Below are positions 2,416 through 28,495 of a DNA stretch of 64,000 bases, piece by piece. Source of the DNA: Escherichia phage PSD2002; sequence record OK335775.1; one strand, written 5' to 3'. The translations under genes were made by a program, and so were the position numbers. Under the pieces are notes generated by a model, which was not told where the DNA came from, ran no database searches, and saw only the letters and a list, made by a program, of their open reading frames with translations. Positions within the stretch are counted from its first letter, which is position 1. Every line of letters begins with the position of its first letter.

Positions 2416-4311
2416 ATGTCCGAACAATTGAATGAGGTATTTGATGGTGATATAAATTTATCTGCTGTCAATTTAAACCCTAAACTTAAAGTCCCACAGA
2501 TTTGGAATATAAAGGCTGAAGGTAACGAGAACCTTGTTGCCCGCATGGTTTCATATACTTCCGAAGGCGATGTAATTCGTCAGGTTAAGCCTGGTGACAA
2601 GTATGTTCATGTCGTTTTAATGAGCCTATCGGCTAAAGGTTCTCCTGCCGAACTCAAAGGTGGATTAGGTACCAATCCTATTTCCGCTATTCGTTCTATA
2701 TTTGATATCGTCTATGAACAGGTCAAGGCCCTTCGTATGGACGCTGTTATGTTCCGTTTTCCTACCAAGAAAATGAAAGGGCAGGAAAAAGCTATACAGA
2801 GGGTATTGGCTAAATTAATAGCCTCTAGAGCAGGCGGACAGTTTAAAGTTCTTGATGCCTTGTATCAATTCACCGGTAAGCATTCGTATGTTTTTATCTA
2901 TCGTAAAAATAAAAATATAGAATCTATAAATGGTATTCCTAATATTAATTTAGAATTGTATACTAAAGTCGAATCTGAAGTCGGTGACGTGTATGTTTCA
3001 AAGAAAACAGGCGAAGATGTTACCAAACTAGAAGCTATAGCTAAGTCCATAGACGAAATAGAAAAATCACGTTCTGATAAAACTGTTATAACCAAAACAA
3101 AGGTTTCTAAACGTGCTGCTATCAATGCTTTATATCCTACAGCAGAGCCTACAGGATTGAGTAAATTTTCGGCAGAGCACAAAAAAGCTTATGCAGATTA
3201 TTCTGCTACTAGTTCCGTTCATTCTTCTGAAGATTCTAAAGAAAGCCAAATAGCTTTAGCCAGTAATAAAATATTAAAAGACACCTCTAAAGAAATGGCA
3301 GAATATTTGGATTATATTTTTAACGGTGTTAATCCATCATTTGAAGTAGACGAGCGCAAACTTAAACTAATTGCTGATATAAAGTTTGCTTTAGAGGCAT
3401 CAGATTCTTTAGATAAATCTAATAGTGTCATAGAGGCTTTAAAATCAGGTAAATCTCATGTAGACATTCTTAGACTAGTCGCTGCGGCCCTTTTAGATGA
3501 TTCAGTTAAAGGTACTTGGGCTAGAGAATCTAAAATCAAGGAAGTAATAAAATCCTTAGTAGCAGTTTATACAAAATCTATCCAACCGTTGTTTAAGATA
3601 TCTGATAATCCTAATTTATCCAAACCTCAAGAAGAGGCAGTCAAAAAGTATACTCGTGGCGGCTACAACCATATAAACAACTTTTTGCTAGGTAAAACAG
3701 ATACCACCGATGAAATGATAAAAATGATTGGTGAGTTGGATTCTACATTTGAAAATGGTACAAAACTTCCTAAAGGAACCATAGTGTATCGTTCTCAGAT
3801 AATGCCTACCGAAATGGCTTTGAATTCTATAAAACATAAGGTGATGTATCTTCCTATTTTTGCATCAACTTCATTGGCTCCTAATATTTTCGGTGAAATG
3901 GGTCATGCTCAATCCAACTTAGACCCTGAAGCTCTTTCTAGCGATATAGATAGTAATCTTGAAGACACCATTAAAAGTGCGACCGGAAGTGCTAGAGATA
4001 CCATTAAGCTAGGGTTAATTATTAAAGGTGCTGATAAAATTAAGGTTATTGTGCCCGGTGACTTGGCTAATTGGTCTACAGAAACCGAAGTAATTCTTCC
4101 TCGTGGGGTTATGCTTAAGATTAATAAAGTATACGGTGCTTCCAAGGGACCTATGGGTTCAATTGGTAAATATGTTTTAGTGGAATGTGAAGTTGTAGCT
4201 ACCGAGCAAATCACAGAGGAAGATTCATATAGCACCGGATTCTCGTTTGGAAATTATGATAGAATTATGTATGAAGATTCTATGGAAAAATTAGCAAATT
4301 TATTTAAATAG
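2416..4311 (+). CDS. alt: Alt-like ADP-ribosyltransferase, paralog 1 (631 aa)
   Basis: RBS AAAGAGGAA; N-terminal block shared with the next two ORFs; C-terminal ART signatures VYRSQ, FASTSL, ETEVILPRG; position next to gene 30 as in T4. Confidence 0.8.
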   Translation: MSEQLNEVFDGDINLSAVNLNPKLKVPQIWNIKAEGNENLVARMVSYTSEGDVIRQVKPGDKYVHVVLMSLSAKGSPAELKGGLGTNPISAIRSIFDIVYEQVKALRMDAVMFRFPTKKMKGQEKAIQRVLAKLIASRAGGQFKVLDALYQFTGKHSYVFIYRKNKNIESINGIPNINLELYTKVESEVGDVYVSKKTGEDVTKLEAIAKSIDEIEKSRSDKTVITKTKVSKRAAINALYPTAEPTGLSKFSAEHKKAYADYSATSSVHSSEDSKESQIALASNKILKDTSKEMAEYLDYIFNGVNPSFEVDERKLKLIADIKFALEASDSLDKSNSVIEALKSGKSHVDILRLVAAALLDDSVKGTWARESKIKEVIKSLVAVYTKSIQPLFKISDNPNLSKPQEEAVKKYTRGGYNHINNFLLGKTDTTDEMIKMIGELDSTFENGTKLPKGTIVYRSQIMPTEMALNSIKHKVMYLPIFASTSLAPNIFGEMGHAQSNLDPEALSSDIDSNLEDTIKSATGSARDTIKLGLIIKGADKIKVIVPGDLANWSTETEVILPRGVMLKINKVYGASKGPMGSIGKYVLVECEVVATEQITEEDSYSTGFSFGNYDRIMYEDSMEKLANLFK

Positions 4312-4319
4312 GATAGATT

Positions 4320-6401
4320 ATGACCCAATTAAATGAAGTGTTCGAGTCCGAAGGTACACTGCCTGTTGTGAACTTGAACCCAAAACTTAAAGTACCTCAG
4401 ATTTGGAAGATTGGAGACGCGGAGTCTCAGTTAGTAGCACGTATGGTATCCTACGCTTCTGAAGGTGATGCTATTAAACAAGTTAAAATGGGTGATAAAT
4501 ATGCCCACGTTATCCTTATGAGCCTTTCAGCTAAAGGTTCGCCTGCCGAACTTAAAGGCGGCTTAGGCCCTACTCCTGTAGATGCGATTAATACTATTTT
4601 TGATGTGGTTTATGACCAAGTTAAAAAGCTTCGTATGGATGCCGTGATGTTCCGTTTCCCTACTAAGAAAATGAAAGGTCAAGGCCCTATCGTTCAACGG
4701 ATTATCCAACGTTTGGTAGCACAGAAAACCGGTGGACGTTTTAAAGTGGTTCCGGCTATGTACCAATTTACCGGTAAACATACTTACATCCTGGTAGTTC
4801 GTAAACAAGCTGATATAGAAGATATCAAAGGTATGCCTGGAATTAATGCTGAATTGTATACTAAGGTAGATTCTGATGTCGGTGAAGTTTATATTTCTAA
4901 AAAAGAAGGCGTACAGGTTACTAAAGAAACTGCTATCGCCGGTAGTATTGCTAAGGTTGAAGAACGTCGCACTGATAAAATGGTTATAACCAAGACTAAG
5001 ATTTCTCGACGTGCTATTGCAGCAAGTCAATCGTTAGAATCTTATCGTAATGAAAGTGGGCTGTTTAAGAAATATGAAGCTACTGCAGTAGATTTTAATA
5101 AACCGGCAACAGTTCCATTAATCCCTGAGGCCCAGGAAATGGTCACTAATAACAATTCTCCTGCGGCTAAAAATAAGGTTGCTAATATAGTAGCTGAAGG
5201 CACTGCTGAAGAATTGCATTACGACTATAAATTGTTCCCACTTCACGGTATTGGTGAAATCCAAGAGAAAATTAAAGAGAAAATTCTTACAGCTATCAAA
5301 AATGAACCTTTGACATCTGTTAAAGCCCTGGAAAAATATGCCTCTACCATTAATACCATTTTCGAAGAATATAAAGGCGAGTGGCTGGCTATCCATAACA
5401 GAACTCGTAAAGGCCAACCTGACGACGTCTGGAATGAATTAACCGAGTCCAAGTGGAAAGCAGCCAAGACTAAGTTCATTAAAAAACGTGTGTATAGTTT
5501 TGCTGGCGTAGGTGGTGGTATTATGGTCGATATTACTATTGCTCGTGAGGGCTCTAAATATACCCCATCACAAAAGCGCGGCATCAGAGAATATTGTGGT
5601 TCAGGATATACAGACATAAATAATCTTCTTTTAGGACGTTATAATCCCCAGAACTATGAGGTTATGAGCGAAAAAGATATCGAATCTGCAGTTAATAATT
5701 TGGATTCCGCTTTTGAAAATGGCGACCGTATACCAGAAGGCATCACAGTTTATCGTGCACAGAGTATGACTGCTCCTATATACGAAGCACTAGTTAAAAA
5801 TAAAGTGTTCTATTTCAGAAATTTTGTATCTACTTCTTTAACTCCTATAATTTTCGGACGTTTTGGTGTTACACACGCTGGTATTGGTCTTTTAGAACCG
5901 GAAGTTCGCAACGAATTGACAGTTGATAAAAATGAAGAAGGAATAACTATTAATCCTAATGAAATAAGAGCGTATAAGGAAAATCCCGATTACGTTAAGG
6001 TTCAAATAGGATGGGCCATTGATGGGGCTCATAAAGTTAATGTCGTATATCCAGGAAATCTCGGAATAGCAACTGAAGCCGAAGTTATTCTACCGCGTGG
6101 ATTAATGGTCAAAGTTAATAAAATAACAGATGCTTCTAATAATGATGGAACAACATCTAGTAATACAAAACTCATCCAAGCTGAAGTTATGACAACAGAT
6201 GAGCTTCAAGAATCTGTTGTATATGATGGTGATGTACTAATGGAAACCGGCGAGTTGGTCGTATATCAAGATGACTTCGATACTTCCGAAAGCCCCTTAT
6301 CTTTTGATTCATTTGTTAAATCTACACGGTTTGATGTACTGCCTCTTTTGGCTTCATGCATAGACCTCTATGACATCCCAGAAAAATTCATCCAAGGGTA
6401 A
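4320..6401 (+). CDS. alt: Alt-like ADP-ribosyltransferase, paralog 2 (693 aa)
   Basis: Same conserved N-terminal block; C-terminal VYRAQ, FVSTSL, EAEVILPRG; central region unrelated to paralogs 1 and 3. Confidence 0.8.
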   Translation: MTQLNEVFESEGTLPVVNLNPKLKVPQIWKIGDAESQLVARMVSYASEGDAIKQVKMGDKYAHVILMSLSAKGSPAELKGGLGPTPVDAINTIFDVVYDQVKKLRMDAVMFRFPTKKMKGQGPIVQRIIQRLVAQKTGGRFKVVPAMYQFTGKHTYILVVRKQADIEDIKGMPGINAELYTKVDSDVGEVYISKKEGVQVTKETAIAGSIAKVEERRTDKMVITKTKISRRAIAASQSLESYRNESGLFKKYEATAVDFNKPATVPLIPEAQEMVTNNNSPAAKNKVANIVAEGTAEELHYDYKLFPLHGIGEIQEKIKEKILTAIKNEPLTSVKALEKYASTINTIFEEYKGEWLAIHNRTRKGQPDDVWNELTESKWKAAKTKFIKKRVYSFAGVGGGIMVDITIAREGSKYTPSQKRGIREYCGSGYTDINNLLLGRYNPQNYEVMSEKDIESAVNNLDSAFENGDRIPEGITVYRAQSMTAPIYEALVKNKVFYFRNFVSTSLTPIIFGRFGVTHAGIGLLEPEVRNELTVDKNEEGITINPNEIRAYKENPDYVKVQIGWAIDGAHKVNVVYPGNLGIATEAEVILPRGLMVKVNKITDASNNDGTTSSNTKLIQAEVMTTDELQESVVYDGDVLMETGELVVYQDDFDTSESPLSFDSFVKSTRFDVLPLLASCIDLYDIPEKFIQG

Positions 6402-15100: not shown

Positions 15101-15112
15101 TATTTATAAATA
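15101..15112. promoter_or_regulatory. bidirectional late promoter: palindrome TATTTATAAATA gives TATAAATA on both strands
   Basis: TATAAATA at 15105-15112 on + (gp26 ATG 15131) and on the reverse strand at 15101-15108 (gp51 ATG 15080). Confidence 0.6.
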
Positions 15113-16992: not shown

Positions 16993-17220
16993 TTAGAAAT
17001 CTTCCTCTTCCTCGTCGTCCATCGACTCCAATTCAGCTCTCTTACCAGCCAATGCATCACGCACGCTAATATCATCCGAATCACGAAGTTCGGCTTCCTT
17101 ACTACGAGTTTTGTAATACTTTTCCAATTCCTTCAGACCATCCATAGTCTGACAAGAACCAATTTTAGCCATGAAGCTTTCAATAGATGCTTCTTGAATA
17201 ACTTCTTTAAAGGTTTTCAT
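16993..17220 (-). CDS. uvsW.1: UvsW.1-like small acidic protein
   Basis: 75 aa (T4 UvsW.1 76 aa); position downstream of uvsW. Confidence 0.55.
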   Translation of the reverse strand: MKTFKEVIQEASIESFMAKIGSCQTMDGLKELEKYYKTRSKEAELRDSDDISVRDALAGKRAELESMDDEEEEDF

Positions 17221-17912
17221 AAATCCACCTGTTTCATTAAATTTCTGATTTTGTGACGAGAAAGACCCGTGGCTTCAGAAGCTTGTTTCATCGAGCCATA
17301 TTCAACACCATTTATAGTAACCTTTTTAGCTGCCGGGTTTTTAGATGGGTCTTTATATCTTTCTTTAGCTTTATCTGAAATTTTCTTAGAAGCTTCAGGG
17401 GTATGATTTTTACCATACATGCCGTTGCCGGCACCGGAATTTCTTTCAGATATAGCTTGACATTGTTCTTGCGTGTATTTATAAGGATTCGCTTTTTTAG
17501 TTGCAGATATTTTATCGCCCCATAAAATAGGTCTACCTTTAAATAAATTGCTCATATATTCTTTATGAGCTTCAGTGTGGTGCTTACCGTAAAATGGATT
17601 TCCTTCTCCAGTCTGAAGAATTGCCAATTGCCTACGTTCCCACCCATATGATTTACTAAATTGTCTTTTATGAGTCCTGGAGCTCATACCCATAGAAATA
17701 ACAGCTTTTATGAGACCGTAGTTATTTGGATAAATTTTGGCCAGTAATTTATGAGCTATAAAATGTTCTTCTGGGGTAAGGCGTACTCTATTTTCTTGAG
17801 TATCAGGCCCACCAATACACGACGGGATAATATGATGAGATTCTGTATAACCCATAGGTTTAGAAGCCTTTCGGCTTCTAATTAAATTGTCATAAATTTT
17901 TTGATAATTCAA
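17217..17912 (-). CDS. free-standing HNH homing endonuclease with NUMOD3 and NUMOD1 motifs; TTG start
   Basis: HNH motif HHIIPSCIGG...ENRVRLTPEEHFIAH; NUMOD3-like NPFYGKHHTEAHKEYMS and NGMYGKNHTPEASKKIS; C-terminal HTH; first codon reads TTG, overlapping the uvsW stop. Confidence 0.85.
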   Translation of the reverse strand: MNYQKIYDNLIRSRKASKPMGYTESHHIIPSCIGGPDTQENRVRLTPEEHFIAHKLLAKIYPNNYGLIKAVISMGMSSRTHKRQFSKSYGWERRQLAILQTGEGNPFYGKHHTEAHKEYMSNLFKGRPILWGDKISATKKANPYKYTQEQCQAISERNSGAGNGMYGKNHTPEASKKISDKAKERYKDPSKNPAAKKVTINGVEYGSMKQASEATGLSRHKIRNLMKQVDL

Positions 17913-19405
17913 ATTTGGACCTCTTTCATGACATAATTAAATTTCTCGTCTGCGTACCGTTGAATACGTTCTAATCCATGTTTTAATGCATAATTTAGGT
18001 GAATGTATTTCTTTTTAGAATCTTTGGATTTAGGTTTCACCCCCATGTCATCGATGATGTCAAAAACTTGGGCTGTTGTTTTAGATTTGTGTTTACGTAA
18101 AACCCTTCCTATGGTTTGCAGTACCGTTACCTTGGATTTTACTGGATGGGCAAATACAACGTGGTGAAGGTTCTTAACGGAAATACCTGTAGAGAACACA
18201 CCATAACTTGCCACAACAATAATACCCTTACCATTTTCCGCCATTACCTTCAGAGCATTACGCGTTTCGGTATTAACTTCACCCGATACGTAATAAACTT
18301 CTTTATGTTGCTCTTTAACCATTTCAAAAAGAGTTTTACCGTGTTCGATGTTTTTAAACATCAGGAATACGTTCTCTTCTTTCTTAGCGAGTTTAACAGC
18401 TAAATTAGCAACCCATTTATTACGACGAGTAGCCTTAGTAATGACCTTGATTTCTGATTGGTAATCTTTACCTTTCATTTTAACCGTGAATTCGTCTGGG
18501 TATCGAAGGAAAATACTGTTGATTTTAAGGTCAGTAACCTGTCCTTCTTCCATTAATTGGGAGGTGGATACTGGCTTAAACACATCACCAAACAAGCCCA
18601 TATATTGCATTAAATTAGCTTTACCATCTTTTAAAGAACCCGACAAACCGAATTTAAACATACAGTTGGTTAGGCCTTCGATGATAGTAGAAATAGATTT
18701 ACCTGTAGCCAAATGGCATTCGTCGTTCATAAACATACCGAACTGAGCAAACCATTCTTTAGGTTGCTTGATAGCGGTTTGATAAGTTGAAACATAAATC
18801 ATTGCATCGGAATCACGAGCAGTACCTGAACGAATACCAAGCATTGCGGCTTTAGGGAACAGACGATAATCGATGAAGTCATTAATCATCTGGTCGACAA
18901 GTGCAGTAGTAGGAACTAATATAAGGATTTTACCTTCATAGTTCTCAACGTAATATCGACTCAGGAGCGCCTGGATTAATGATTTACCTGCGGATGTAGG
19001 TAAATTCAGAATTGCACGACGTTTTGTCAGGCCGTTGTATACGGCTTCATTCTGATACCAATGAGGCTCAATCTTGGTAGACCCTGAATAAATTTCTTGA
19101 GAAGCCACCCATGAGTCAAAATCTTCACGAGAAATATCTTCCTGTTCAAGAATACGTGGGTCAATCCACAGAGAGTATTCAAATTGTTCAGCGAACTTTT
19201 TAATTTGAGGAACCAATCCATATGGCAGTTTACGGTTATAATCCAGAAGGCGAATACGTCCGTCCCATTGACCATAACGAAATTTAGGGTTGAATTTATA
19301 TCCATCAGCTTCAAAGCTAAAATAGTCTCTGAGTTCGTAGAATGTAGATTCATCGCATTCAATACGGACATGACTAAAATTATCAAAATGTACTTGAATT
19401 TGCAT
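17909..19405 (-). CDS. uvsW: UvsW helicase
   Basis: 498 aa; Walker A (PTSAGKS), DECH box; N-terminus resembles T4 UvsW. Confidence 0.9.
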   Translation of the reverse strand: MQIQVHFDNFSHVRIECDESTFYELRDYFSFEADGYKFNPKFRYGQWDGRIRLLDYNRKLPYGLVPQIKKFAEQFEYSLWIDPRILEQEDISREDFDSWVASQEIYSGSTKIEPHWYQNEAVYNGLTKRRAILNLPTSAGKSLIQALLSRYYVENYEGKILILVPTTALVDQMINDFIDYRLFPKAAMLGIRSGTARDSDAMIYVSTYQTAIKQPKEWFAQFGMFMNDECHLATGKSISTIIEGLTNCMFKFGLSGSLKDGKANLMQYMGLFGDVFKPVSTSQLMEEGQVTDLKINSIFLRYPDEFTVKMKGKDYQSEIKVITKATRRNKWVANLAVKLAKKEENVFLMFKNIEHGKTLFEMVKEQHKEVYYVSGEVNTETRNALKVMAENGKGIIVVASYGVFSTGISVKNLHHVVFAHPVKSKVTVLQTIGRVLRKHKSKTTAQVFDIIDDMGVKPKSKDSKKKYIHLNYALKHGLERIQRYADEKFNYVMKEVQI

Positions 19406-19419
19406 AAGTAATTCTCAGT

Positions 19420-19441
19420 TATAAATATAGTTATATTTATA
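19420..19441. promoter_or_regulatory. divergent late promoters (TATAAATA on + for inh/hoc; TATAAATA on the reverse strand for uvsW)
   Basis: TATAAATA at 19420-19427 (+) and complement of TATTTATA at 19434-19441. Confidence 0.55.
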
Positions 19442-20141: not shown

Positions 20142-20990
20142 ATGGCTTATACCGTAGATATGGCTCCTTTGGCGGCTACGGCCGTTATTGGAGCAACAAC
20201 CAATTTCACTGCGACCGGTTCCGGTGCTGCAGCTGAAGGTACCGAATCATTTGTCTGGACCGTTGATGGCGTTCCTCAATCTTCTGTGACTGCTGCAATG
20301 GATTATGTTGCTGTTGGCCCGGCAGGCAGCAAGACTATTAAAGTTGTTGCAACAACTACACCGGCGGACGGCGAACCAGAAACAGCTGAAGCCGAAACAA
20401 CTTTAACTATCCAGAATAAAACCATTTCCGGTGTTTCTGTGACATTAACCCCAGCTTCGATTAATGTTCCGGAAGGCACTCCAGCTTCTTTTAAAGCGGA
20501 TGTGGTCGGCGCTCCTGCTGGTGCTACTTTTGCCTATTCTTGGAAGAAAGACGGTTCTCCTGTAGTTGGCACCACGGATACTCTAGCAATCGATACAAGC
20601 ACTGAAGGTTCACAGGTTATTGAAGTTTCTGTTGTGGTTTCGGCGACTGATTATAACCCGGCGACTGTCACAAAAACCGGTAATGTAACAGTCACGGCTA
20701 AAGTCGCACCGGTTCCGGATGGCGAATTACCTTACGTTCATCCACTCCCTGTTCGTAATTCAGCATATATTTGGGTTGGTTGGTGGGTTATGGATGAAAT
20801 CCAGAAAATGACTCTTGAAGGCAAAGACTGGAAAACAGATGACCCGGATAGCCCGTATTATTTGCACCGATATACACTTCAAAAAATGATTACCGACTAT
20901 TCAGAGGTTGATGTACAAGAATCTCGTAATGGCCGAATTATTCATCGCACCGCTTTAGAAGCTGGTATTATATACGATTACATTTATTAA
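20142..20990 (+). CDS. hoc: Hoc outer capsid protein (Ig-like domains + capsid-binding domain)
   Basis: C-terminal half (SWKKDGSPV...YNPATVTKTGNVTVTAKVAP...GWWVMDEIQKMT...) closely resembles T4 Hoc; 282 aa versus 376 aa in T4. Confidence 0.85.
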   Translation: MAYTVDMAPLAATAVIGATTNFTATGSGAAAEGTESFVWTVDGVPQSSVTAAMDYVAVGPAGSKTIKVVATTTPADGEPETAEAETTLTIQNKTISGVSVTLTPASINVPEGTPASFKADVVGAPAGATFAYSWKKDGSPVVGTTDTLAIDTSTEGSQVIEVSVVVSATDYNPATVTKTGNVTVTAKVAPVPDGELPYVHPLPVRNSAYIWVGWWVMDEIQKMTLEGKDWKTDDPDSPYYLHRYTLQKMITDYSEVDVQESRNGRIIHRTALEAGIIYDYIY

Positions 20991-22425: not shown

Positions 22426-22432
22426 ACGATAA

Positions 22433-22454
22433 AGGGACCTTACGGTCCCTTTTA
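22433..22454. terminator. hairpin GGGACC-TTAC-GGTCCC with flanking T-runs, between convergent rnlB and gp24 paralog
   Basis: Perfect 6-bp stem; TTTTATTTTT downstream on +. Confidence 0.5.
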
Positions 22455-23732
22455 TTTTTCTAAAGGCGGTAATTTTACGCCGAGATAAGAACTCAATTGA
22501 CTTTGATTAGCCATTTTGTCCATATCAGAACCATCAATAATGCGGGCTTCTTTATCGTCCTTAGCGACGGTATAAGGGTTTGCAGACAATGCATAACGAG
22601 CAAGCAATGCTACTGTAGGTTGTAAGCTTTCCGGGTCAACAATAACCTTAAATTCACCAACTGAAGTATCACCTTCTTCGTCAACCACATTCAAACCTTC
22701 CGTATAAGGCGCATAATATAAAGATGCGACCGTCTGTCCTTCACCCATCTGGGCATTTACACCAACAATAACATAATCACATGGACTATTCATATCAGCA
22801 TAAAGTGGTAGGCCATTCTTTAATATACCATAAGCCAATTCGTCCTGGTCTTCCTTTTTCTCAACCCAACCAGAGGCGGCGAGAATAGCAGCACAACGAG
22901 AACTAGCTACTGCATAAGTCCCGGCAAAAGAAGTCTGTCGTTGGACGGCAGAGTTCATCTCACACATATAATAATATAATGTGCGAGCACGGTCCTGGGC
23001 ATTATCGTAGCGAGGGTTGGTAAGGTCTAATACACCCTTTTCAGAAACACCCTGGACTTTAAAACGAGAGCTCACGGTAATTAATGACTGTAATACATCC
23101 TTATTAATTTCTTCTGCCATTTGAATGCCTAGCAGATTTTCAACAAAATTAGGAGCATTAAACCCGTTAGATTCTAGGTCTTGGGCTAATTCGACTGTCA
23201 ATGAAGTTTTCAGTTTACGTGATTTAACTTCAGATTGCCATTTGTCGATACGGAATCCGGTTTCAGCAATTTCAGGATGGCCTTGTTCAAATTTAGAAGT
23301 AATAGCAGCATCCGACACCATACGGATATGGCCGGCTGCCACTGCTTCAGAAATAACTTCGCTGAGGTTGGTTTCTGTGGTTCCGGCGAAAGGAGATGCT
23401 TCTAGAACTTTAAACACTACGCTTTCAAACTGGAACATATCACCGACCGCATAAGCTGTAGATGAATCAGTAAATTCTGGAATATTTTCACGTTCCGTCA
23501 TACCAATCTGGCCCGCAAATGTTGCTCCACCAAGATAAGTCATTTTGTCGTCAGGATTCAGTACACGTACCCCATACAGAGCAGCAACCGGTTGATTTGT
23601 TTTTTGTTCAGCAACTAGGGCTTTAAAGATTCGTTTATTAGTTGCTTGGGTGTATGAAAGAAGAGCAGGACGGCCAACCGAGCTGGCAGCCGTCAATGTG
23701 GATTCTTTAATTAGGTCTACAATCTTAGACAT
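22452..23732 (-). CDS. second, diverged gp24-like capsid vertex protein paralog
   Basis: 426 aa; alignable along full length to the adjacent gp24 ortholog, shared blocks KSRKLKT, TVELAQD, EINKDVLQSLITVS, RYALSANPYTVAKDDKEAR. Confidence 0.85.
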   Translation of the reverse strand: MSKIVDLIKESTLTAASSVGRPALLSYTQATNKRIFKALVAEQKTNQPVAALYGVRVLNPDDKMTYLGGATFAGQIGMTERENIPEFTDSSTAYAVGDMFQFESVVFKVLEASPFAGTTETNLSEVISEAVAAGHIRMVSDAAITSKFEQGHPEIAETGFRIDKWQSEVKSRKLKTSLTVELAQDLESNGFNAPNFVENLLGIQMAEEINKDVLQSLITVSSRFKVQGVSEKGVLDLTNPRYDNAQDRARTLYYYMCEMNSAVQRQTSFAGTYAVASSRCAAILAASGWVEKKEDQDELAYGILKNGLPLYADMNSPCDYVIVGVNAQMGEGQTVASLYYAPYTEGLNVVDEEGDTSVGEFKVIVDPESLQPTVALLARYALSANPYTVAKDDKEARIIDGSDMDKMANQSQLSSYLGVKLPPLEK

Positions 23733-25015
23733 TAATCAGCCTCGTAAATAATTGCCGGAAGTTTAACGCCAACCAGATAAGACATATTGCTCTGTCCAGC
23801 CATTAAATCCATATTGGTTGCATCGATAACACGAGCTTCTTTATCGTCTTTAGCCACGGTGTACGGGTTAGCTGATAGTGCATAACGAACCATCAGAGAA
23901 ATAGAAGGTTGTAATGAATCCGGGTCAACAATAACCTTATAAGCACCGACGTGTTCTTGGTCATCTAAATCTAAGCCTTCGGTATAGGGAGCGTAGAAAA
24001 TAGAACCGACAACTTCATTACCGCCGTAATTCTCTTTAACACCAACGGTAACATAATCTAATGGACTGTTAACGTCACAAAACAGAGGCAGACCATTCAA
24101 CAAATATCCGTATGCAGTTTCCGGAAGCCAATTATTATCTTCGGGTTTATGTTTTAACCAGCCAGAACCTGCAAGCATTGCAGCCACACGACTTGAAGCC
24201 ACAACAAACGTGCCAGAATAAGAAGTAGTTTTCTGGATTTCAGAATTCATCTCACAAACGAGTTCATAAAGTTTACGTGCAGATTCAGGAGCACTGTCAT
24301 AAGACAAATCGATGATGCCGTTATCAGATACACCAGTAACTTTATAACGTTTGGATACGGTTATTAGAGATTGCAGAACGTCTTTATTAATTTCATCTGC
24401 CATTACTGTAGCCAAGAGGTCTTCTAAGAACGCCGGCGCGTCAAAGCCATTTGATTCCATATCCTGCGCTAATTCTACAGTCAAAGCCGTCTTCAATTTA
24501 CGGGTCTTAACCGGAGCATTCCATTTATTAACCTGGAATACAGCATCAGAGATTTCTACATCACTCGCTTCAAATTTAGTGGTATGGGCAGCATCAGGAA
24601 CCAGACGACATGTTAATGACACTAAACCTTCTTGAAGAGCATCAGCCAATTCTGTGGCGCTAGTGGACGCGAGTGGGCTTGCTTTAAGAGCCTTATAAAC
24701 CACATTCTGGTACTTGAAATATTCACCCTGAGCAATCGCCTGGGCCTTATCTGTGAGTTCTGGGATAGTTTCACGGTCTTTAGAACCAACTTCACCACCA
24801 TAAGAGGCACCTGTCTGGAAACTAAATTCATTATCAGGGGTAAGATATTTGACACCATACAGTGCAGCAATAGGCTGGCTAGTACGTTGTTCGGCGATAA
24901 TATCACGGTAAATCAATTTGGTTGTAGCACGGGTCAAAGCAACAAGATTAGGGCGACCCAATGAGTTGCTGGAAGTAGTTGTTGACTCGCGCAGTAATTC
25001 GTTAATCTTTGCCAT
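23732..25015 (-). CDS. 24: capsid vertex protein gp24
   Basis: 427 aa; N-terminus MAKINELLRESTTT... and overall sequence closely resemble T4 gp24. Confidence 0.9.
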   Translation of the reverse strand: MAKINELLRESTTTSSNSLGRPNLVALTRATTKLIYRDIIAEQRTSQPIAALYGVKYLTPDNEFSFQTGASYGGEVGSKDRETIPELTDKAQAIAQGEYFKYQNVVYKALKASPLASTSATELADALQEGLVSLTCRLVPDAAHTTKFEASDVEISDAVFQVNKWNAPVKTRKLKTALTVELAQDMESNGFDAPAFLEDLLATVMADEINKDVLQSLITVSKRYKVTGVSDNGIIDLSYDSAPESARKLYELVCEMNSEIQKTTSYSGTFVVASSRVAAMLAGSGWLKHKPEDNNWLPETAYGYLLNGLPLFCDVNSPLDYVTVGVKENYGGNEVVGSIFYAPYTEGLDLDDQEHVGAYKVIVDPDSLQPSISLMVRYALSANPYTVAKDDKEARVIDATNMDLMAGQSNMSYLVGVKLPAIIYEAD

Positions 25016-25043
25016 TGCGCTTTCCTTATTGAGGGTATATGTT

Positions 25044-25051
25044 TATTTATA
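25044..25051 (-). promoter_or_regulatory. late promoter TATAAATA upstream of gene 24
   Basis: Complement of TATTTATA, 28 nt upstream of the gp24 ATG. Confidence 0.5.
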
Positions 25052-25090: not shown

Positions 25091-25116
25091 CATATCAAAA
25101 CATGAGGAGATTAAAA

Positions 25117-25383
25117 ATGAACAAGTTAAACTTTATTCGTACTACTCTTTCCGCTCTTGATAAAGACATCAAAGCTCTGGTAGAAAAATTCGGTAACAAT
25201 CCTAATGGTAATGCAGTGAATGCCTTAGTTAAGAAATACGAAGCCATGGCTTATGCTACCGACTTCTGGTGGAACGGTGAATACTCTACCCATACCAAAG
25301 ACAAATCTGGTAACTGGCTGAAAATCCAAGAAAATCGTATTGACTTCCGTGATATCATCAACCGTCGAGTTAAGATTGCATAG
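25117..25383 (+). CDS. hypothetical protein (88 aa), opposite strand between genes 23 and 24
   Basis: Track ORF 25102..25383 trimmed to ATG 6 nt after GAGGAGA; own early promoter; no recognisable motif. Confidence 0.5.
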   Translation: MNKLNFIRTTLSALDKDIKALVEKFGNNPNGNAVNALVKKYEAMAYATDFWWNGEYSTHTKDKSGNWLKIQENRIDFRDIINRRVKIA

Positions 25384-25396
25384 TACAGAAACAAGA

Positions 25397-25418
25397 ATGG
25401 GAGACCGAAGTCTCCCAT
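25397..25418. terminator. perfect 9-bp hairpin ATGGGAGAC-CGAA-GTCTCCCAT between convergent genes
   Basis: Stem-loop seen directly; T-rich tract follows on the reverse strand after gene 23. Confidence 0.45.
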
Positions 25419-25432
25419 AATAAGGTTATATC

Positions 25433-26992
25433 TTAGATACCTTTAACATATACACGACGGAAGTAACCATTCAGACCAAGGCTGTTAACGATGTCAGGCA
25501 TACCGCTCTGAATACGTTTGGTAGGAGCCTGTGCAGACGGGTCAGCGAACGGGTTGATACCGATACCGTAACGAGTTTTGAAGCCCATTACCGGTTGGAA
25601 GTTCTTCGGATCGGAACCACGCAGCGGGGTCAGTGCAACGTATGGAGCATAGTAGATACCTGCGTCCATTTCGTTAGCGCCTTTATAACCGATGGTGAAG
25701 TAATCGGAACGTGCATACTGGTCGATGTAAACGCGATATTTACCACCAAGAACACCGGCAAATACTGCTTTGGTTGTGTCAACGTTGAAACCTTGACCCA
25801 GACCTTGAGCTGCATAACTTACAGAAGTATCAACTGCAGCCAGTACGTTAACTACGTTACGGGAAGCGATGATGAAGTTACCAGCACCACGACCGGTCTG
25901 ACGAGCGATTTCGGCTGCTTCTTTATCAATCTGGAACAGAAGGGCTTTAAAGCTCTCACCGGCCCAACGAGCACCACGGATATCAATCGGGTCCTGGAAG
26001 TCAAACACACCAGCTTTAGCGCCAACGGTGTTGGTCATACCAGATTTACCAACCTGTGCAGAGTAGTTAATCCAATCGATAACTTCACGGTTGATTTCGA
26101 GCATAATTTCGGTAGCAAGGATACCGGACAGTTCAGCATCTGCATCCATACCGTGTACTGCACGAAGGTCCTGTGCCAGTTCGATAGAGTAGCTTGCTTT
26201 CAGCTGACGGGATTTAGCTTCGATAACTTGTTTGTCGATGCGGAAGCCCATTTCGTTCCACGGGTTATCGGTAGAACCGTTAAAGCCTTCCTGAAGTTCG
26301 GCGATAGAAGTAGCCATACCTTCAGCCAATTCAGCCAACTTACCAGCTTCAATCAAAGCGGTAACAGCAACATCCAGTTTAGCGGCATCAGTAGCAGCAG
26401 CATCAACGGTTACGGCTTCGACAGCCTGGAAGTGTGCAGCACCGGTAGCTTCGAAGAAGTGAGAATAAATTTTACCAACTTCCAGAACTTTGCTTGCAGC
26501 CAGTGCTTCGAAAGTTTCAGCAGCACCCTGACCAGAGAACATAGCGTCTGGAGAATACATCGGATGGAAAGCTTCTTTAGCGCCAGAAGCGATAGGGTCT
26601 TTACCATAAACTGCACGAAGGGCAAATACCTGGCCGGTAGGGTTATTCAGAGGCTGAACACCACAAATATCAAAAGCAATCAGATGAGGAATAGCACGAC
26701 GAACCATACCCATTACTGCCGGCCCAATCTGAGTTACAGCACCAGAAGTCTGGCCAGCTGCGATATTGGTAGCATCATAACCGTGGTCACCACCAATTTC
26801 AGCTTCGGTCAGGAAAGAACCAAATGCTTCAGAGATTTTTTCATCACGATATTCCGGAGCAGTCAGGATGTCTTGTTCCTGGTTTTCGAAAATTTTAGCG
26901 ATGATAGCTTGTTTAGAAGCACCCACGATTTCAGGAAGGGCTTCGTTTTCCAGCAGAGCGGACCATTTTTGAACTAATGCATTCTTTTTCAT
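25433..26992 (-). CDS. 23: major capsid protein gp23
   Basis: 519 aa; near-colinear with T4 gp23 as recalled (QAIIAKIFENQE...GSFLTEAEIGGDHGY...YYAPYVALTPLRGSDPKNFQPVMGFKTRYGIGINPF). Confidence 0.95.
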   Translation of the reverse strand: MKKNALVQKWSALLENEALPEIVGASKQAIIAKIFENQEQDILTAPEYRDEKISEAFGSFLTEAEIGGDHGYDATNIAAGQTSGAVTQIGPAVMGMVRRAIPHLIAFDICGVQPLNNPTGQVFALRAVYGKDPIASGAKEAFHPMYSPDAMFSGQGAAETFEALAASKVLEVGKIYSHFFEATGAAHFQAVEAVTVDAAATDAAKLDVAVTALIEAGKLAELAEGMATSIAELQEGFNGSTDNPWNEMGFRIDKQVIEAKSRQLKASYSIELAQDLRAVHGMDADAELSGILATEIMLEINREVIDWINYSAQVGKSGMTNTVGAKAGVFDFQDPIDIRGARWAGESFKALLFQIDKEAAEIARQTGRGAGNFIIASRNVVNVLAAVDTSVSYAAQGLGQGFNVDTTKAVFAGVLGGKYRVYIDQYARSDYFTIGYKGANEMDAGIYYAPYVALTPLRGSDPKNFQPVMGFKTRYGIGINPFADPSAQAPTKRIQSGMPDIVNSLGLNGYFRRVYVKGI

Positions 26993-27013: not shown

Positions 27014-27829
27014 TTAAGAAATTCGTGATGCTGCGATTGCAGACAGGTCCGCGAAGGACAGGGTAGGCTTAGCGCCTTTTTCTTCAACTGCTTCTGAAAT
27101 GTAATTCAGTGCCGCAGCATCGTCTACATTTTTATTTATAGCGGCTTCGGTGATTGGGTTTCCAACGTCAGACTGACCTTTAACCATTTCAACAATAGCG
27201 CCAATTTTTTTACCGAATGCATCGGAATAATCCATGCCTTCTACCAGAGAACTGACTTTTTCTTTTTGAGATTCGGTCAGGTCTTTAGTTGCTTCCGTAA
27301 CAGCAACTTCACGCTGTACGTAATTAATATACGCATCGCGCATACCAACTTCTTCGAACAGACGAGCGGTTTCATCTTTCTGCTCTTGGAGCTCTTCTTC
27401 CATTTCAGCAACAACATCTACTGCTTCTTCTGGAACAACCACATTGTGTTCAACAAACAGTTCTTTCATACCCATCAACATGGATTCGAAAAGTTCGGCT
27501 TTAATACCTTTATCAACAGCCAGCTGGTTTTCAGCCATCCATTCTTTAGCAACGTGGTCAAGGAAACGACCTGCAGCTTCTTGGATTTTCTTATCGGCTT
27601 TTTCTTCAGCTTCTTCTTTATTTTTCTCGACTTCTTCTTCCGCTTTTTCAGCGATTTTAGCGATGTGAGATTCAGCCAGTTTCACGGCGTGTTGCTTGAC
27701 GGTAGCTTCGAATACAGTGCCGAAAGTTTCTTTTGCTTCCGGAGAAATATTAACTGATTCGAAAATACTATCAAGAGCAACGGAAGCATCAATATTCTGT
27801 GCTTCGGCAATCAGTTGTTCTTTAAGCAT
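27014..27829 (-). CDS. 22: prohead core scaffold protein gp22
   Basis: 271 aa; acidic coiled-coil; N-terminus MLKEQLIAEAQ resembles T4 gp22; late promoter TATAAATA (complement of 27857-27864) upstream. Confidence 0.85.
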   Translation of the reverse strand: MLKEQLIAEAQNIDASVALDSIFESVNISPEAKETFGTVFEATVKQHAVKLAESHIAKIAEKAEEEVEKNKEEAEEKADKKIQEAAGRFLDHVAKEWMAENQLAVDKGIKAELFESMLMGMKELFVEHNVVVPEEAVDVVAEMEEELQEQKDETARLFEEVGMRDAYINYVQREVAVTEATKDLTESQKEKVSSLVEGMDYSDAFGKKIGAIVEMVKGQSDVGNPITEAAINKNVDDAAALNYISEAVEEKGAKPTLSFADLSAIAASRIS

Positions 27830-27859: not shown

Positions 27860-28495
27860 TTATAACGCTTTTTTCATGGCCTCTGCGAGAGCCATAAAGG
27901 CGTCATCGGCACTGGTATCGGTATCTACCGTTTGTGATTCTGTAATTTGCTTTGGAGTTACATAAGCATCAGGAGCAGATGGTCCCCATACTGCATCAAC
28001 ACCGACGGTTAATTTATAACCTTCGTTTACACGCTTATATCCTTTGTTGGTTTCGGTTAAAGAACCAAGACCACGAGAACTAACACCAGGAACCCAACCA
28101 GCACGGATATTTGCAGCTAGTTTATCACCCGGACCATGGTCACCTTCGATGATACGTGCACGTCCATAAACATCATTACCTTTCCACCACATATCTTCAA
28201 TAATGATAGCGGCTTGCATAGGGTCAACGTTAGCACGAGGTGGATGGTTTAATTCTCCTAAAGCTTGTTTAGTAGCAACCTGTTCTGCCATATAATCAGA
28301 AACGGCTTTTTCCAAAATAGGTTTTGGGTAAAGGCGTTTATTACGGTTAACTACCTCTGCTTGCATGAAAATGCCTTCTATATAAAGGCCGGGAGCAAGC
28401 CCAGAATTTTTTCCATCATGAGATTCCAACATAGGAACCCCATCGATAATTTCACCTGGTTGTCCCCAATGTTCGATGAGCAATTCAGGTTTCAT
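27860..28495 (-). CDS. 21: prohead protease gp21
   Basis: 211 aa (T4 gp21 212 aa); synteny 68-21-22. Confidence 0.85.
   Translation of the reverse strand: MKPELLIEHWGQPGEIIDGVPMLESHDGKNSGLAPGLYIEGIFMQAEVVNRNKRLYPKPILEKAVSDYMAEQVATKQALGELNHPPRANVDPMQAAIIIEDMWWKGNDVYGRARIIEGDHGPGDKLAANIRAGWVPGVSSRGLGSLTETNKGYKRVNEGYKLTVGVDAVWGPSAPDAYVTPKQITESQTVDTDTSADDAFMALAEAMKKAL

Follow-up and report, generated by a model that had tools for sequence, protein, structure and literature searches.

A diverged second gene 24 in tandem with the T4-like capsid vertex gene of a Dhakavirus-type phage: an apparently old and conserved lineage

Introduction

What does a T4-like phage do with two genes for a capsid vertex protein, when T4 itself has one? 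This question is raised by a 64,000-nucleotide stretch of the genome of Escherichia phage PSD2002 (OK335775.1; hereafter the window), in which two homologues of T4 gene 24 lie in tandem on the minus strand. The upstream copy, 24a (copy A), resembles T4 gene 24, while the downstream copy, 24b (copy B), is more diverged. T4 gp24 has been described as a derivative of gp23 (PMC10580926), and T4-type genomes carry a single gene 24, as we checked at the RB51 locus. An earlier reading of the window (the original prediction) proposed that a second vertex paralog could allow alternative or mixed pentameric vertices. Here we examine the integrity, ancestry, divergence and expression signals of 24b, and weigh what its product may do in the phage head.

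Results

Two full-length gp24 genes lie in tandem

The products of the two copies could be aligned with one another from end to end (55% identity, 77% positives, E=2e-177). When compared with T4 gp24 (PDB 1YUE), 24a was matched over its full length (660.6 bits, E=8e-198) and 24b over residues 1-423 (506.5 bits, E=5e-151), whereas both gave just ~47-50 bits against gp23 chains, and 24b shared only 27% identity over 285 aligned amino acids (aa) with the window's own gp23. Identity to the T4-type gp24 of RB51 was 70% for 24a and 57% for 24b. Both copies match Pfam PF07068 and PHROG 138, 24b scoring 325 bits with PF07068, and its much closer similarity to gp24 than to gp23 places 24b within the T4 gp24 family, the gp24 branch of PF07068 (Gp23). 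Two full-length gp24 genes in tandem are a real feature of this DNA, far beyond chance. The original prediction had described two tandem open reading frames (ORFs) of 426 and 427 aa, both gp24-like over their full length, the one close to T4 gp24 and the other alignable throughout yet substantially diverged, against the background of a single gp24 in T4. Each of these statements was borne out, the coordinates exactly so, and the alignment of both copies with gp24 and gp23 that it had suggested as a check strongly favoured gp24. Its claim of a second paralog stands as far as a diverged, full-length gp24-family gene beside the T4-like copy is concerned; as a novelty it does not, since the gene is annotated in dozens of GenBank records.

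A megablast search with the pair returned 94 phage records, eleven of them at least 99% identical (99.8-99.9%). Among these near-identical relatives are vB_EcoM_FB, vB_EcoM-E33, ABTNLS3, IME540, WG01, LQ5, Bp7 and QL01, so that by nucleotide identity the window is a Dhakavirus of the Bp7/WG01 type; identity to JS98 was 84%. The pair is already known: in near-identical genomes each of the two genes is labelled a head or capsid vertex protein, and annotation of the pair in databases goes back to 2007. The genes are named 24a/24b in JS98 (EF469154; 2007), JS10 and IME08, 'capsid vertex protein I/II' in VR5 and VR26, and 'head vertex protein I/II' in Salmonella phage CGG4-1; the label '24(2)' is used in VR7, and 'head vertex protein (x2)' in Bp7, WG01 and QL01. 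The JS98, JS10 and IME08 pairs consist of the same genes in the same order and genomic position (g23, a small antisense ORF, 24a, 24b, convergent rnlB); JS98 differs slightly from the window, in that the lengths of 426 and 427 aa are swapped between the copies and the two genes abut rather than overlapping by 1 nt. We found no paper on the duplication of gene 24 in the openly available literature, and the Petrov 2010 review does not mention it.

24b is intact, conserved and predicted to fold like gp24

The ORF of 24b was intact in every locus examined. We then estimated the ratio of non-synonymous to synonymous divergence (dN/dS) by the pairwise Nei-Gojobori method (NG86) in ten two-copy phages. 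For 24b the ratio was 0.02-0.08, even where dS exceeded 1. For 24a, the nine Dhaka-, Gapriver- and Gelderlandvirus phages gave 0.04-0.08 with one another; higher values (0.13-0.17) were confined to pairs that included Klebsiella phage P545, for which dS approaches saturation. By this measure 24b is under strong purifying selection, as strong as that acting on its neighbour. A similar picture was obtained from the residues that define the family. Conservation of at least 95% among 114 non-B gp24 sequences marks out 132 columns, of which the B clade keeps 107 at a level of at least 90%; in a control set of 114 columns, A keeps 111 and B keeps 97.

An AlphaFold 2 (AF2) model of 24b, built from an 81-sequence alignment, had a predicted local distance difference test score (pLDDT) of 76.6 and a predicted template modelling score (pTM) of 0.72. 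Its best Foldseek match was mature T4 gp24 (gp24*; 5vf3_a), with template modelling (TM) scores of 0.86/0.89 and a root-mean-square deviation of 3.4 A over 416 columns, as compared with TM scores of ~0.53-0.65 against gp23 chains. The model predicts that 24b has the architecture of gp24, that is, the HK97 fold with an insertion (I) domain, in a gp24-like rather than gp23-like geometry. The disabling substitutions that the original prediction had raised as a possibility were thus not apparent, either at the family-conserved positions or in the modelled fold.

In addition, 24b carries an (L/I)-x-E|S motif at residues 8-11. The N-terminal sequence of the window's protein is MSKIVDLIKE|S, and other proteins of the B type have LIQE|S, LIHE|S, LIRE|S, LLRE|S or LIAE|S. 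The chains of mature T4 gp24* begin at aligned residue 11, so the motif of 24b sits at the position at which gp21, the prohead protease, cuts a ten-residue N-terminal propeptide from T4 gp24.

The 24b lineage appears to be old

A tblastn search with 24b identified 1,536 gp24 places in 1,418 phage records, which implies that ~118 records (8%) carry two copies. Two-copy phages include Dhakavirus, Gaprivervirus (UPEC07), Gelderlandvirus (CF-SP2) and Marfavirus (P545), together with Proteus phage ABTNLPp2, the Erwinia phages FBB1, Cronus and IT22, and metagenomic relatives; the same pair is present in the Salmonella phages S16, STML-198, STP4-a and Melville. Single-copy genera include Tequatro-, Mosig-, Karam-, Moon-, Jiaoda-, Lazarus-, Krisch- and Biquartavirus. 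In a search of 5.8 billion proteins, B-type sequences formed a series from 90% down to 66% identity, followed by a step to ~62%.

To place these proteins, we computed a bootstrapped neighbour-joining (NJ) tree of 144 sequences using our own numpy implementation. The B-type proteins formed one clade of 30 with 100% bootstrap support and a long stem (0.18), separate from the clade that joins Dhaka-type A with T4-, RB69-, Karam- and Moon-type gp24. The window's 24b falls inside the B-type clade, beside the B copies of JS10 and ABTNLsp5. In four-point tests on random quartets, more than 99.9% paired A with T4-type gp24 and not with B, a result that was robust to Kimura or gamma-corrected distances. 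We also compared seven placements of B by maximum likelihood (ML), for 19 taxa and 425 columns with four gamma categories, and the best of them had B as sister to the A-type groups taken together (FBB1-type A, T4-type and Dhaka-type A). A consensus site-pattern (parsimony-like) test gave four sites for AT|BJ and one for AB|TJ, too few informative sites to place B.

Two other origins were tried by ML and rejected. A recent in-situ duplication of the neighbouring 24a, which would make B sister to its co-resident A, was worse by a log-likelihood difference (delta lnL) of -46.6 (standard error (SE) 13.4; resampling of estimated log-likelihoods, RELL, 0.000), and B as sister to T4-type gp24 gave a delta lnL of -48.2.

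In two-copy genomes the A-type partners come from all three A-type subgroups, including the T4-type group (P0057, P0089) and the FBB1 group (P0072). Judged from the trees, the 24b lineage is old, and would have split off before the A-type genes diverged from the gp24 of T4, RB69, Karam- and Moonvirus. These relationships are most simply explained by a single tandem duplication in the distant past, after which 24b would have been lost repeatedly, from the T4 lineage among others, with recombination coming later; horizontal spread of 24b by recombination is possible.

A separate observation concerns Escherichia phage 04086 (OR842557), which is labelled Dhakavirus and has a single gene 24, the product of which is 68% identical to the window's 24a. 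This gp24 falls in the T4-type group of the tree and not in the Dhaka A-type clade, and it looks as if either the genus label is loose or the head module is recombinant.

24b diverges at predicted elements of the pentamer interlock

Turning to what sets 24b apart, we found 16 clade-wide states unique to B at positions where Dhaka-type A, T4-type and Jiaoda-/Tegunavirus proteins agree, as against 1-2 for each of those groups. Where the remaining gp24 proteins show at least 95% conservation, the majority residue of B differs at 18 positions (in T4 numbering: 27, 29, 32, 34, 36, 38, 56, 57, 66, 72, 200, 204, 267, 335, 338, 341, 356 and 408), the changes including L34R, Y57V, T204I and E335Q. Ten of the 18 lie within aa 21-81 (Fisher p=4e-4), where they cluster in the N-terminal segment (aa 25-38) and in I-domain linker 1 (aa 56-72). 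Identity between A and B is lowest over residues 61-80 and 121-140 (25% each) and 21-40 (40%), intervals that in our reading of the domain layout correspond to the N-terminal segment, I-domain linker 1 and the I domain; it is 60-80% over 161-220 (spine helix) and 70-90% over 361-400. Insertions at B positions 239-240 (two residues) and 349-351 (three residues, in an acidic loop) are a further feature of most B-type sequences, and the loop that aligns with the AP loop is four residues shorter in Dhaka-, Gelderland- and Marfavirus-type B. The clade can be recognised by LL(S/A)(Y/F)T(Q/K)ATNKRIF at 24-36, RV at 56-57, Q at T4 position 335 and a C-terminal SSYLGVKLPPLEK (LDKN in JS98-type sequences), all of which are present in the window's 24b and conserved across the clade.

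In the T4 capsid, aa 26-29 of gp24* pair as parallel beta strands with an I-domain linker from the next gp24* of their own pentamer, and the I domain rests on the neighbouring subunit, while residues 11-20 and I-domain linker 2 reach neighbouring hexamers and the AP loop contacts gp23 (Fang et al. 2022, PMC9546572). Mapped onto this description, the B-specific changes would fall mainly in the parts that interlock the subunits of one pentamer, and secondarily in loops that are in contact with hexamers.

24a and 24b read as one late operon

The head genes of the window follow one another on the minus strand in the order g20, g67, g68, g21, g22, g23, 24a, 24b, with rnlB, a 24.3-like ORF, hoc and inh on the opposite strand downstream of 24b. 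This makes 24b, like the rest of its family, a late gene of the head morphogenesis cluster situated downstream of g23. The features of the locus are collected in Table 1.

The window contains more copies of the T4-type late promoter motif TATAAATA than expected (18 against 7.0; no shuffle out of 100 gave as many). Between 24a and 24b the motif does not occur, and a separate 24b promoter was not found, the sigma-70-like matches in the region being no commoner than in shuffles. The overlap of the 24a stop codon with the 24b start codon suggests translational coupling. Since a terminator follows gene 23, the 24a-24b unit would be separate from the g23 transcript; the hairpin that follows 24b is common to it and the convergent rnlB gene. 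On these signals the region reads as one bicistronic late operon, consisting of promoter, 24a, coupled junction, 24b and terminator, from which both proteins should be produced together, late and in linked amounts. The arrangement is widespread: in 14 of 14 two-copy loci (the window, nine cultured phages and four metagenomic contigs) the order is the same tandem and the distance from the 24a stop to the 24b start is -4 to +1 nt. None of the 14, a set from which some short metagenomic contigs were left out, has a B-type gene without an adjoining A-type gene.

Table 1. Position, strand and basis of the features in and around the 24a-24b pair.
Feature	Position	Strand	Basis or detail
Gene 24a (copy A), T4-like capsid vertex protein, 427 aa	23732..25015	(-)	ORF listing and homology
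Gene 24b (copy B), second diverged capsid vertex protein by homology, 426 aa	22452..23732	(-)	ORF listing and homology
g21	27860-28495	(-)	ORF listing
g22	27014-27829	(-)	ORF listing
g23	25433-26992	(-)	ORF listing
Putative T4-type late promoter motif TATAAATA	25044..25051	(-)	Exact match, 29 nt upstream of the 24a ATG
Shine-Dalgarno AAGGA for 24a	25023..25027	(-)	7 nt upstream of the ATG (25015-25013)
Shine-Dalgarno GAGG for 24b	23740..23743	(-)	Within the 24a 3' end, sequence tacGAGGctgatTAATG, 7 nt before the ATG
TAATG junction	23730..23734	(-)	24a stop (23734-23732) shares one base with the 24b start (23732-23730)
Putative bidirectional intrinsic terminator after 24b	22431..22452	both	AAAGGGACC-GTAA-GGTCCCTTT hairpin, T-rich tail on both strands
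Putative terminator hairpin after gene 23	25397..25418	(-)	ATGGGAGAC-TTCG-GTCTCCCAT then TCTTGTTTCT

Variation in the neighbourhood

Between g23 and 24a, in antisense, lies a 93-aa ORF (25102-25383, plus strand) with a match to PHROG 6003 (E=8e-50), a group of unknown function. The same place and orientation are taken by an ORF of comparable size (~270-280 nt) in JS98 (orf173), JS10, LHE83, VR5, UPEC07, phiC120 and phage 04086, and in IME08 a segD homing endonuclease has been inserted beside it. On the other side of the pair, several two-copy genomes have extra co-oriented ORFs between 24b and rnlB; there are none in the window, where the terminator directly follows 24b. The insert in IME08 is a 'tail fiber-like protein' (4006-5193 of its locus), while three metagenomic loci have unannotated ORFs of ~337-352 aa and ~165 aa after 24b (L019, 4890-6427; L020, 6345-7900; L021, 6326-7841) and a fourth has an unannotated 239-aa ORF (L022, 5327-6046). 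The 24b-rnlB junction therefore appears to be a hotspot for insertion.

Further away, two TATAAATA motifs stand back to back on opposite strands in the uvsW/inh intergenic region (19420-19427, plus; 19434-19441, minus), and a second opposite-strand pair, in which the motifs overlap, is found at 15101-15112; both pairs look like divergent late promoters. A 231-aa homing-endonuclease-like ORF (17217-17912, minus strand; PHROG 655, E=5e-53; Pfam NUMOD3; TTG start in the ORF list) sits between uvsW (17909-19405) and a 75-aa ORF (16993-17220). Because in JS98 a 75-aa ORF (orf181) comes directly after uvsW, the endonuclease-like ORF would seem to be a mobile insertion confined to the Bp7/WG01 type. 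Finally, the Hoc homologue (20142-20990, plus strand; PHROG 1149, no Pfam match at E<=0.001) has 282 aa as compared with 376 aa in the T4-type RB51, which suggests a head fibre with fewer Ig-like domains.

Discussion

Our analysis makes it probable, on balance, that 24b encodes a second functional capsid vertex protein that arose by ancient duplication and forms homopentamers of its own. According to this proposal, 24b would be made late and together with 24a from the shared operon, built into the prohead shell, trimmed there by the prohead protease like gp24, and assembled into pentameric vertices, preferentially as homopentamers. These would occupy some of the 11 non-portal vertices, alongside pentamers of 24a. 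Self-association of 24b is the most likely outcome because the elements expected to interlock its pentamers have diverged together from those of A, and it would give rise to capsids with two kinds of vertex pentamer. The alternative or mixed vertices envisaged by the original prediction are plausible, and the intactness of the gene, the purifying selection acting on it, its co-expression signals and its protease-site motif are all consistent with them.

Several points weigh against this proposal. The preference for homopentamers is deduced from where substitutions fall in a description of the T4 capsid rather than from a modelled interface, and that description does not specify whether aa 26-29 pair with I-domain linker 1 or linker 2 (PMC9546572). 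The AF2 model is of moderate confidence, which is lowest (~50) at residues 1-30, the very N-terminal region at issue. With respect to ancestry, the likelihoods were obtained for only 19 taxa with our own program and a home-made reversible matrix derived from BLOSUM62, not with a standard package. Placing B as sister to Jiaodavirus/Tegunavirus, or at the base, cost just 8-9 lnL units (~1.2 SE), which is not significant; as ML does not fix the branch point of B, there is room for horizontal acquisition. Furthermore, the A and B subtrees are partly incongruent, and dS is discordant between the two genes: for the window and LHE83 it is 0.33 for A and 1.11 for B, a threefold difference, and for the window and ABTNLsp5 it is 0.57 for A and 0.26 for B. 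Since dS differs in this way between A and B for the same pairs of phages, the values indicate recombination breakpoints in or near the pair, by which A and B alleles have probably been shuffled among Dhakaviruses. Lastly, we found neither virion proteomics nor cryo-electron microscopy of a two-copy phage in the openly available literature, and a search of the PDB with both proteins matched T4 entries only and no capsid of a two-copy phage.

A different possibility, one that we think unlikely but worth serious attention, is that 24a and 24b are interchangeable or co-assembling subunits, mixed within pentamers or placed at random vertices, which have both been kept for the sake of dosage, robustness, antigenic variation or stability. 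The tightly coupled bicistronic arrangement suggests near-equal synthesis of the two proteins. Moreover, A and B are 60-90% identical over the core of their fold (the spine helix, the P and A domains, and C-terminal residues 360-400), so that contacts with the surrounding gp23 hexamers could be largely common. Between the window and LHE83 the A proteins are 98% identical and the B proteins 90%; different B alleles have thus been combined with near-identical A alleles, which argues against tight co-adaptation of the two. However, strict redundancy rarely survives long co-retention at a dN/dS of ~0.05 in both copies, and the excess of states unique to B over those of the other groups indicates a changed function or interface, with the changes clustering in the elements of the intra-pentamer interlock. 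In addition, a symmetric 1:1 mixture is impossible in a pentamer.

A bolder version of the vertex proposal is rather unlikely. This holds that the head is built from three position-specific HK97-fold paralogs, with hexamers of gp23 and homopentamers of 24a and 24b at distinct classes of vertex (for example, the single apical five-fold vertex as opposed to the ten 'shoulder' vertices at the boundaries between caps and midsection), and that the T4 capsid with its one gp24 would be a secondary simplification following the loss of 24b.

It is also improbable that 24b has no stable place in the vertices of the mature head and instead acts as an assembly or initiation factor, as an alternative used under particular conditions of host or temperature, or as a decoy for host defences. 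We found no virion proteomic evidence for 24b in the literature, T4 and most of its relatives build the same prolate head with one gp24, so that a second vertex protein is not structurally required, and two surface or contact loops differ from those of A (the AP loop, shorter by four residues, and the acidic loop with its insertion at 349-351). Set against this, 24b retains the gp24 fold including the insertion domain, the protease-site motif, late co-transcription and most family-invariant residues, as expected of a protein that enters the prohead shell, and the genomes of two-copy phages are ~158-176 kb in length, matching T4-type heads. That 24b is a redundant, dispensable relic drifting towards loss is hardly credible: although ~92% of T4-like records are without it, suggesting that it has probably been lost repeatedly, the idea is effectively refuted by an ORF that is intact in every locus, by the low dN/dS even at dS above 1, by conservation within the clade that equals or exceeds that of other gp24, and by B-specific motifs kept across genera.

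The proposal that 24b is a vertex protein in its own right can be set beside known systems. T4 gp24 (1YUE; gp24* in 5VF3, 7VRT and 7VS5) is like 24b in its length, full-length homology and predicted fold, in its (L/I)-x-E|S at residue 10/11 and in being encoded by a late gene downstream of g23. The two differ in that they share just 56-57% identity, in the 18 substitutions at positions conserved to at least 95%, which are concentrated in aa 25-72, and in the shorter AP loop (by four residues) and the insertions at B 239-240 and 349-351 of 24b; and where T4 has one gene 24, the window has 24b beside a T4-like copy. The gp23/gp24 pair, an ancient duplication of the major capsid protein from which a pentamer-specific vertex protein arose, follows the same logic as 24a/24b: a tandem duplicate of an HK97-fold capsid gene was kept in the head cluster and, in the case of 24b perhaps, specialised. 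The split between 24a and 24b is much younger (55% identity as compared with ~21-27%). By identity, the nearest single-copy relatives of B are found in Jiaodavirus (Klebsiella phage KpV477, 63%) and Tegunavirus, with a group mean of ~60%. The single gp24 of Jiaodavirus is confirmed to be abundant in virions, 211 and 209 peptide-spectrum matches having been recorded for two phages (PMC13119998). Yet KpV477 gp24 is equally close to A (63%), the Jiaoda-/Tegunavirus group means being 61.9% to A and 60.1% to B, and it is without the B-specific motifs LLSYTQATNKRIF, RV at 56-57 and SSYLGVKLPPLEK; nor was the grouping of B with Jiaoda-/Tegunavirus preferred by ML (delta lnL -8.8).

While the existence of the pair was known, the modest new point is that the 24b lineage appears to be old, is always found in tandem with 24a and is scattered across the A-type subgroups, from which we infer repeated loss, probably including loss in the T4 lineage. 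The gene touches the question of how a prolate capsid specifies and stabilises its vertices. Because 24b seems to be ancient, always tandem and strongly conserved, position-specific specialisation of vertices becomes a testable idea, and if it proved true that 24b pentamers hold specific vertices or alter stability, this would represent a division of labour beyond the gp23/gp24 split. The annotation of RB51 lists 'os' as an alias of T4 gene 24, a name that refers to osmotic-shock resistance. Candidates for phage therapy or biocontrol among the two-copy phages include the JS98/JS10 group, relatives of Salmonella phage S16 and the Klebsiella Marfavirus. For such phages, vertex composition could matter for the stability and immunogenicity of the particle.

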